Notes under the pieces: model-generated
Told to the model about the DNA's origin: nothing
What the model saw: the letters and a program-made list of their open reading frames with translations, nothing else
The model's database searches: none
Sequence record: OQ540978.1
Direction: 5' to 3' (one strand)
DNA: 64,000 bases
Source: Escherichia phage pEC-N1203-2Af.1
Made by a program: the position numbers and the translations under genes
Shown here: piece by piece, positions 13,907 to 14,554 of the stretch
How the letters are laid out: every line of letters begins with the position of its first letter
Position numbering within the stretch: position 1 is the stretch's first letter

Positions 13907-14554
13907 ATGATGGCGAAGAAAACAACACCTACAAGATATCGAATTCATGGAATCCCTATTAAATACATCTCAAACTATGAAGAGTTTTACAGAGTGAACT
14001 GGAAAGTAGTTCACAAGTTCTTCATGTATGATATCAGAGATTATCATGAAGCAGAAGATGTGGCACAGGAAGTGCTCTTGAACGCTTGGAGATTTGTCTT
14101 CGCTAAGCAGGATGAGAGAGTCCTAGAGGACGAGAAAGACCAAGAGCATATGACTTATCGAGTCAAGAACATTATCTGGTCTATACGCTCAAATAGACAG
14201 ACTGTAGGGGACCGTCGTATCTACTCTATTCCGGAGGCTGATATGTTCCGTACTCCTGATATGGTGGACAGTCCTTTAGAGATTGCTATGGATAAGCAAG
14301 ATTCTGTTGGTGACCCATTTATGGAGTCTCGTATCTTCTATTTCTTCCAAGATTTAAGTGATACGATGGATACTCAGAAGTTAGCTAATATGTTCTCAAT
14401 GATTTTCTTGGGTATCCCCCATGATCACATTCAGAAAACTATTGGCATGTCACATGGAACTTTCTACCGTCGTTATGCGGAGTTAAAAGATTTGTATGAA
14501 TATGTGGTAGAGAAGCACTTTGATAAAGAAGAGTTTCAAGGGTTGATTACATGA
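13907..14554 (+). CDS. phage-encoded sigma-70-family (ECF-like) sigma factor
   Basis: Region-2-like [15 protein letters not shown]; C-terminal HTH-like segment [20 protein letters not shown]. Confidence 0.6.

Follow-up and report, generated by a model that had tools for sequence, protein, structure and literature searches.

The closest described system is that of phage phiEco32, whose sigma factor gp36 steers the E. coli core RNA polymerase to a defined set of phage promoters, in concert with a second phage protein, gp79, which shuts off sigma-70 transcription and stimulates the gp36 promoters (3-4-fold for P26 and P68, with P26 stimulated 4-fold in vitro). Six gp36 promoters of phiEco32 and five relatives are tabulated by Lavysh et al. 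(2022; Table S3), with the letters TAATGTAgA at P6, TAATGTATA at P13, P26, P40 and P58, and aAATGTATA at P68. According to the literature (PMC8948821, PMC4331800, PMC12276001), the six phiEco32 promoters have been experimentally mapped, by primer extension, in vitro transcription and cryo-EM, and transcription starts 6-8 nt downstream of the 9-mer motif. P68 is the promoter captured in the cryo-EM open complex, in which the gp36 C-terminal domain contacts -37G and -34A; these contacts have been seen on P68 only (PMC12276001).

Here we describe the corresponding system in a 64,000-nucleotide stretch of phage DNA (OQ540978.1; hereafter, the window), which had been the subject of an earlier note made from its letters and open reading frames. 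That reading recovered a real, experimentally validated phage transcription system, and we hold with very little residual doubt that the ORF it singled out encodes the Kuravirus sigma factor gp36 and that the TAATGTATA sites are gp36 promoters. As gp36, its promoters and its RNA polymerase-bound structure are already published, the system is not new. The present analysis corrects two gene starts, to 13910 for the sigma gene and to 21465 for gene 26, and its possible novelty is limited to a seventh promoter with a conserved RNA-like unit and to an element shared by the promoters at -38 to -34.

A gp36 ortholog in a Kuravirus genome

The window is a Kuravirus (phiEco32-like) genome. It shares ~94% DNA identity with phiEco32 over a 5-kb test stretch (12000-17000) and has the same gene order and strand layout, and in a whole-window comparison most of it is colinear with phiEco32, relative to which it is reverse-complemented and permuted, as follows:

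1-47,000: corresponds to phiEco32 47,160 down to 1,290
48,000-64,000: matches the right-hand end of phiEco32

The region at ~47,000-48,500 spans the position of the phiEco32 genome ends, and identity there falls to 78-80%. A tRNA-Arg (anticodon TCT) at 58867-58941 (+) is the counterpart of the single annotated tRNA of phiEco32. In place of phiEco32 gene 34 (dNMP-kinase/ATPase, 894 nt), the window carries an unrelated 91-aa ORF at 14934-15209 (+), flanked by the SLOG-like and exonuclease genes. The 5-kb stretch around the sigma gene matches 98 phage records, nearly all of them Escherichia/Shigella Kuravirus-like.

The ORF at 13907-14554 (+), 215 aa, is present in the ORF list as the earlier note gave it, but its start almost certainly lies at the second ATG, the ORF-finder start adding one Met:

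13910-14554 (+): sigma factor gene, ortholog of phiEco32 gp36, 214 aa (PDB 9M7Y, PHROG 1740, contact residues)

The start at 13910 is the one annotated in phiEco32 and EC.W14-3, and the PDB 9M7Y construct begins at the equivalent ATG; one relative has ATA where the window has the first ATG, and the Shine-Dalgarno spacing fits the second ATG better than the first. Neighbours of the sigma gene code for a macro-domain protein and for a SLOG/YspA-like protein.

The encoded protein is identical to phiEco32 gp36, as deposited under PDB 9M7Y chain F, at 213 of 214 positions (99.5%, E = 2.6e-145), with K28R as the sole difference. All 23 of the 23 contact residues published for gp36 (list taken from PMC12276001) are unchanged, among them the residues described as binding gp79, the flap-tip helix and the clamp helices. 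Identity extends to the readers of the -10-like element (E79, H80, Y83, R84, W90, S91, S94, N95), the readers of the -35 region (Y186, R187), the core-binding acidic patch (D44, E47, E49, D50, E54) and the flap-tip groove (M138, I142, F166, L167, F204). The ORF also matches PHROG 1740, 'RNA polymerase sigma factor', at 6e-46. Generic sigma models respond more faintly: the Pfam model Sigma70_r2 covers residues 25-63 at E = 0.0012, its 19.1 bits falling short of the cut-off of 24, TIGR02937 reaches 23 bits against a cut-off of 42.9, and the Pfam search returned no profile match for sigma region 4. Because these scores fall below the curated sigma-70 thresholds, the gp36 assignment rests on near-identity and not on family models. 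The sigma-70 region-2-like segment described earlier is therefore a real signal, albeit one under the profile cut-off, and the C-terminal HTH described with it is confirmed solely through the sigma-4-like C-terminal domain of the published 2025 cryo-EM structure (PMC12276001).

The mechanism has been shown for phiEco32 and is carried to the window by the near-identity of the two proteins. By analogy, the window's gp36 would take the place of sigma-70 on the core RNA polymerase of the host. Its N-terminal, sigma-2-like domain would be seated on the clamp helices and read AATG as A -14, A -13, T -12 and G -11, while W90 and Y83 would wedge the fork at -12/-11. The compact sigma-4-like C-terminal HTH would lie on the rotated flap-tip helix and contact G -37 and A -34, and gp79 would expel sigma-70 region 4 and stabilise gp36. 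So assembled, the system would drive three plus-strand middle units (P68, P58, P40) and three minus-strand late units (P26, P13, P6). A tblastn search for gp79 within the window returned nothing with E below 3; judging by synteny, its gene would lie ~5 kb before window position 1.

Six known promoters and a bipartite layout

Exact TAATGTATA occurs six times on both strands of the window against 0.74 expected (Poisson probability ~1e-4). The whole-window count against a shuffled control, which the earlier note had proposed as a check, places this frequency above chance, as none of 100 dinucleotide-preserving shuffles reaches six copies. Five of the six copies are noncoding, in a window that is ~12% noncoding (P ~1e-4). 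One-mismatch matches, by comparison, are not enriched as a class (24 in the window versus 20.5 expected), and we dropped their enrichment as promoter evidence; the variant class carries no statistical weight of its own, and it is the exact matches, together with synteny, that bear the claim. The promoters thus recognized are:

782-813 (+): P68, middle; T-GGTA at -38 to -34, GGTAGTAGATA at 783-793, AAATGTATA at 805-813; predicted transcription start ~820, driving 853-1182 and a Dps-like gene
5721-5752 (+): P58, middle; T-AGCA at -38 to -34, TAATGTATA at 5744-5752; predicted transcription start ~5759, driving 5789-6103
12057-12088 (+): P40, middle; T-AGTA at -38 to -34, TAATGTATA at 12080-12088; predicted transcription start ~12095, driving gene 40 (12148-12894), with read-through to the sigma gene
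21504-21535 (-): P26, late; TAAGACCTA at 21527-21535 (-38 to -30), TAATGTATA at 21504-21512; predicted transcription start ~21497, driving gene 26 (true CDS 17047-21465)
39067-39098 (-): P13, late; TAAGACCTA at 39090-39098, TAATGTATA at 39067-39075; predicted transcription start ~39060, driving 38281-39033 and tail genes
46543-46574 (-): P6, late; T-GGGA at -38 to -34, TAATGTAGA at 46543-46551; predicted transcription start ~46536, heading the terminase, portal and head operon

These six sites map one-to-one and syntenically onto phiEco32 P68, P58, P40, P26, P13 and P6, with the same letters. The earlier note, which had taken the motif for the phiEco32 sigma-dependent consensus, was right in this, the published gp36-holoenzyme element being tAATGTAtA. 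It had placed the exact copies at 5744 (+), 12080 (+), 21504 (-) and 39067 (-) correctly but overlooked those at 12008 (-) and 26732 (-), and the two variants that it pointed to, AAATGTATA at 805 (+) and TAATGTAGA at 46543 (-), are letter for letter the published P68 and P6 variants. The proposed distance of 30-60 nt from motif to gene start accommodates the exact sites (36, 59, 38 and 33 nt) and one variant (39 nt) but not P6, at 11 nt. Likewise, the label of late genes suits P26, P13 and P6, whereas P40, P58 and P68 are middle promoters.

Two of the late promoters bear on how their genes begin. The remark that the ORF-track start of the 1487-aa gene lies inside its own promoter is borne out: its ATG at 21510-21508 is the ATG of TA-ATG-TATA in P26. 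With a predicted P26 transcription start of ~21497, that ATG would not be on the P26 transcript at all. The true start of gene 26 is 21465, an ATG preceded by an AAGGAG Shine-Dalgarno sequence and located 38 nt from the motif, as in the phiEco32 gene 26 annotation. At P6, the motif ends 11 nt before the gene 6 ATG (46531), giving a predicted leader of ~5 nt. The AGGAG Shine-Dalgarno sequence would precede the transcription start, and a gene 6 transcript made from P6 would have almost no leader.

When the promoters are aligned on the 9-mer, a second region of agreement emerges. All seven promoters, counting the site at 12008 (-) discussed below, have T at -38, a purine at both -37 and -36, and A at -34, which the intragenic copy at 26732 (-) does not. 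Because this T-R-R-N-A at -38 to -34 is common to all of them, we regard the promoters as bipartite, of the form TRRNA-N18-tAATGTAtA in the window. Individual promoters share more than this: the late pair P13 and P26 have TAAGACCTA in common at -38 to -30, and GGTAGTAGATA, at -37 to -27 of P68, has its only other window copy at the 12008 (-) site, at the same spacing. The shared element would extend to the whole promoter set a contact that cryo-EM has documented on a single promoter.

Two further matches were considered as promoters and rejected. The TAATGTATA copy at 26732-26740 (-) is intragenic (26041-27075, tail region), lacks a phiEco32 counterpart and has G at both -38 and -34 instead of T and A; it is probably a chance occurrence. 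TAATGTTTA at 13835, a candidate autoregulatory promoter for the sigma gene, lies inside gene 37 without the -38 T, the -37 purine or the -34 A, and is probably also due to chance. In an ECBP2-like relative (L007), TAATGTAAA occurs at 4512-4520, 16 nt upstream of the sigma gene start; this site is without the -38 to -34 element and its function is doubtful.

The bipartite layout reaches beyond the closest relatives. Three distant relatives (L009-L011; sigma genes at 4880, 5478 and 5572) encode a sigma factor 53% identical to gp36, which carries H80N and R84Q in the -10-reading helix, and upstream of their gene 40 homolog (~2876-2890) stands tGG(T/A)A-N18-(T/A)AATGGATA. The two substitutions, found together with an altered motif, may reflect a shift of specificity at -10. 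The 106-nt noncoding block described below is missing from these relatives. That a distant genus keeps the bipartite layout with an altered motif indicates that the layout is older than the exact 9-mer.

The route from P40 to the sigma gene, 1.8 kb downstream, is interrupted just after gene 40:

12916-12942 (+): intrinsic-terminator-like hairpin and T-run, AGCCACCTTCGGGTGGCT then TTTTTTCG

As the sigma gene lies beyond this terminator-like hairpin, only read-through transcripts from P40 would reach it, and the order of P40, terminator and sigma gene suggests an attenuated positive feedback on sigma expression. The strong hairpin directly after gene 40 further suggests that gene 40 (12148-12894, +) forms a highly expressed single-gene unit. 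Its product ends in an acidic C-terminal tail, YEDDDSSPF, like those of single-stranded-DNA-binding proteins; the putative SSB-like character of gp40 is drawn only from this tail, and a sequence comparison of gp40 with solved structures in the PDB gave no match.

Could the motif copies instead be promoters of the host sigma-70 holoenzyme, AT-rich and -10-like as they are, and the ORF an unrelated HTH regulator? The SU10 genome paper predicted sigma-70-like hexamers that overlap the three middle promoters, a 9-of-12 sigma-70-like match overlaps the 12008 (-) site, and the sigma profile matches of the ORF are, as described, sub-threshold. Sigma-70-like matches around the 12008 (-) site are nevertheless at chance level (4 versus 4.3 expected), the ORF protein is 99.5% identical to one solved in the sigma position on RNA polymerase while bound to such a promoter, and published in vitro transcription from these promoters in phiEco32 depends on gp36, with gp79 stimulating them as it shuts off sigma-70. 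We consider host promoters highly improbable in consequence. Less probable again, to the point of being negligible, is that the excess of the 9-mer is a compositional or repeat artefact devoid of function. The genome is AT-rich, one-mismatch matches stand at chance, and the exact copy at 26732 (-) itself looks like a chance event; against this, no dinucleotide-preserving shuffle attains six copies and five of the six are intergenic, six motif sites, P6 and P68 included, are co-oriented with gene starts and lie 11-59 nt ahead of them, and the six published phages, like every relative examined, keep the sites at syntenic positions, while their flanks vary. Within the sequence, nothing contradicts the explanation by gp36 and its promoters.

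A candidate seventh promoter and a conserved noncoding unit

The copy of TAATGTATA at 12008 (-) falls in the 316 nt that separate gene 41 from gene 40, pointing away from P40, and is followed by a conserved noncoding unit. We refer to it as Panti40:

12008-12039 (-): Panti40, predicted seventh promoter; T-GGTAGTAGATA at 12028-12039, TAATGTATA at 12008-12016; predicted transcription start ~12001
11846-12001 (-): unit following Panti40, conserved and noncoding; candidate ~155-nt RNA, four hairpins

Panti40 has the layout GGTAGTAGATA-N11-TAATGTATA; its motif is found in phiEco32 at 36704-36712, and the site is kept in 20 of 20 relatives, namely phiEco32, 13 isolate or viral relatives (five viral contigs, plus eight GenBank phages belonging to two genera, Kuravirus and Suseptimavirus), together with six metagenome contigs, although the last were retrieved by the promoter pattern itself and so give no independent information on its conservation. 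Among the relatives the two elements are preserved on either side of an 11-nt spacer that varies, a pattern that speaks for selection acting on the promoter as such, and a real promoter at 12008 (-) is likely. Panti40 is absent from the six-promoter lists of the later papers examined, and could have been seen and dismissed in Savalia 2008 or Pavlova 2012. A literature search for Kuravirus RNA-seq, transcription-start mapping and small RNAs yielded nothing relevant.

The noncoding unit opens with a 5' hairpin and continues through a middle segment, of which two unrelated versions exist, into a 106-nt block that closes with a long hairpin. This core block (11840-11945) is present in 98 of 98 related phage records at no less than 92% identity, and at 99% or above in 71 of them, even though the neighbouring 5 kb is only 60-80% identical in 19 of the 98; among the matches listed, it is unannotated in all records except one. 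A small ORF in the conserved block was considered and rejected, for indels of 1-3 nt and the two unrelated middle segments break every frame; coding is thereby excluded for the unit.

As RNA, the minus strand folds at -45.8 kcal/mol (z = -2.45) versus -35.3 for the plus strand (z = -1.34), and in 13 of 13 sequence variants it folds better than the plus strand, by 4-10 kcal/mol. Four predicted G-U pairs of the consensus fold are kept in all ten aligned sequences, and in the 5' hairpin a C-G pair becomes A-U in one lineage and U-A in another, alongside a change from G-U to G-C. Covariation over the fold is not significant (60 of 500 shuffles reach the observed score), 38 of its 43 pairs never varying, and viral and metagenome scans brought in more copies of the unit with almost no new variation. 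Across the whole window, Rfam gave only a tRNA match at gathering score and hence no family match for the unit; a permissive Rfam search of 11780-12060 returned only chance-level matches (E above 1), and screening the window for complementary trans targets yielded 10-12-mers at chance level only. Read on the plus strand, the long hairpin runs into TTTTTAT, a better U-tract than the TTTAAAA of the minus strand; it may serve, in addition or instead, as terminator of the sense operon upstream.

We tentatively propose, with doubt marginally outweighing belief, that Kuraviruses possess a seventh gp36-dependent promoter which transcribes a conserved structured noncoding RNA of ~155-180 nt, from 12001 to 11846, the 3' long hairpin of which would double as the sense-strand terminator. 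That the unit gives rise to a functional RNA is, taken by itself, a nearly balanced question on which we lean slightly to the negative. Such an RNA could regulate or insulate the SSB-like gene 40 and the sigma operon, exert antisense control over upstream genes, or act in priming at a replication origin. If the proposal is true, the gp36 regulon of a well-studied model includes a previously unnoticed noncoding RNA.

Confined to this seventh site, there is a serious competing possibility, which we find somewhat doubtful: Panti40 and the block may not form a promoter-plus-RNA unit. The block would then be a DNA-level element or a sense-strand terminator of the upstream operon, and the reverse motif either a tolerated by-product or a device for transcriptional interference with, or insulation of, P40 and nothing more. 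The better U-tract of the plus strand speaks for this, as do the weak covariation, the want of an outstanding trans target and the absence of the site from published lists. A terminator, for its part, would not call for a 106-nt stretch kept at 92% identity or better in 98 genomes, and both Panti40 elements have been retained around a variable spacer. The minus-strand RNA is always the more stable and makes use of G-U pairs that on the plus strand would be A-C mismatches, and the 5' hairpin exchanges C-G for A-U and for U-A in two lineages; these points count against the competing possibility.

Comparison with known sigma systems

Salmonella phage 7-11, a member of the same subfamily of C3-morphotype podophages, likewise uses a distant phage relative of sigma-70, gp47, and its promoters occupy genome positions equivalent to those of the gp36 promoters. 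Yet gp47 shares only ~15% identity with gp36, the late promoters of phage 7-11 follow a different bipartite consensus (GTAAtg-N16-aCTA), and that phage lacks gp79, a middle class and host shut-off alike. The late sigma factor of T4, gp55, resembles gp36 in being small and highly diverged, in recognizing mainly an extended -10-like element (TATAAATA at -10) and in needing a phage co-activator; it differs in having no known sigma-4-like domain and in relying on gp33 and the sliding clamp, whereas gp36 has a sigma-4-like domain and uses gp79.

The bacterial group 4 (ECF) sigma factors share with gp36 a two-domain architecture of sigma-2 and sigma-4 in ~200 aa, and the GenBank label of gp36 is indeed 'ECF sigma factor'. 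By comparison with these, gp36 scores under both the Pfam and the TIGRFAM cut-offs, the window promoters are without the -35 'AAC' and -10 'CGT' elements, and there is no adjacent anti-sigma gene; the gp36 structure shows a rotated first helix and, in the C-terminal domain, a shortened fourth helix (PMC12276001). It is the phiEco32 gp36/gp79 system (PDB 9M7Y; Pavlova 2012; NAR 2025) that the window resembles most closely. Besides K28R, the replaced gene 34 and a gp79 gene outside the window, it differs by one extra, nonconserved intragenic copy of the motif, at 26732 (-), and it agrees with phiEco32 in promoter positions and in the letter variants of the promoters.
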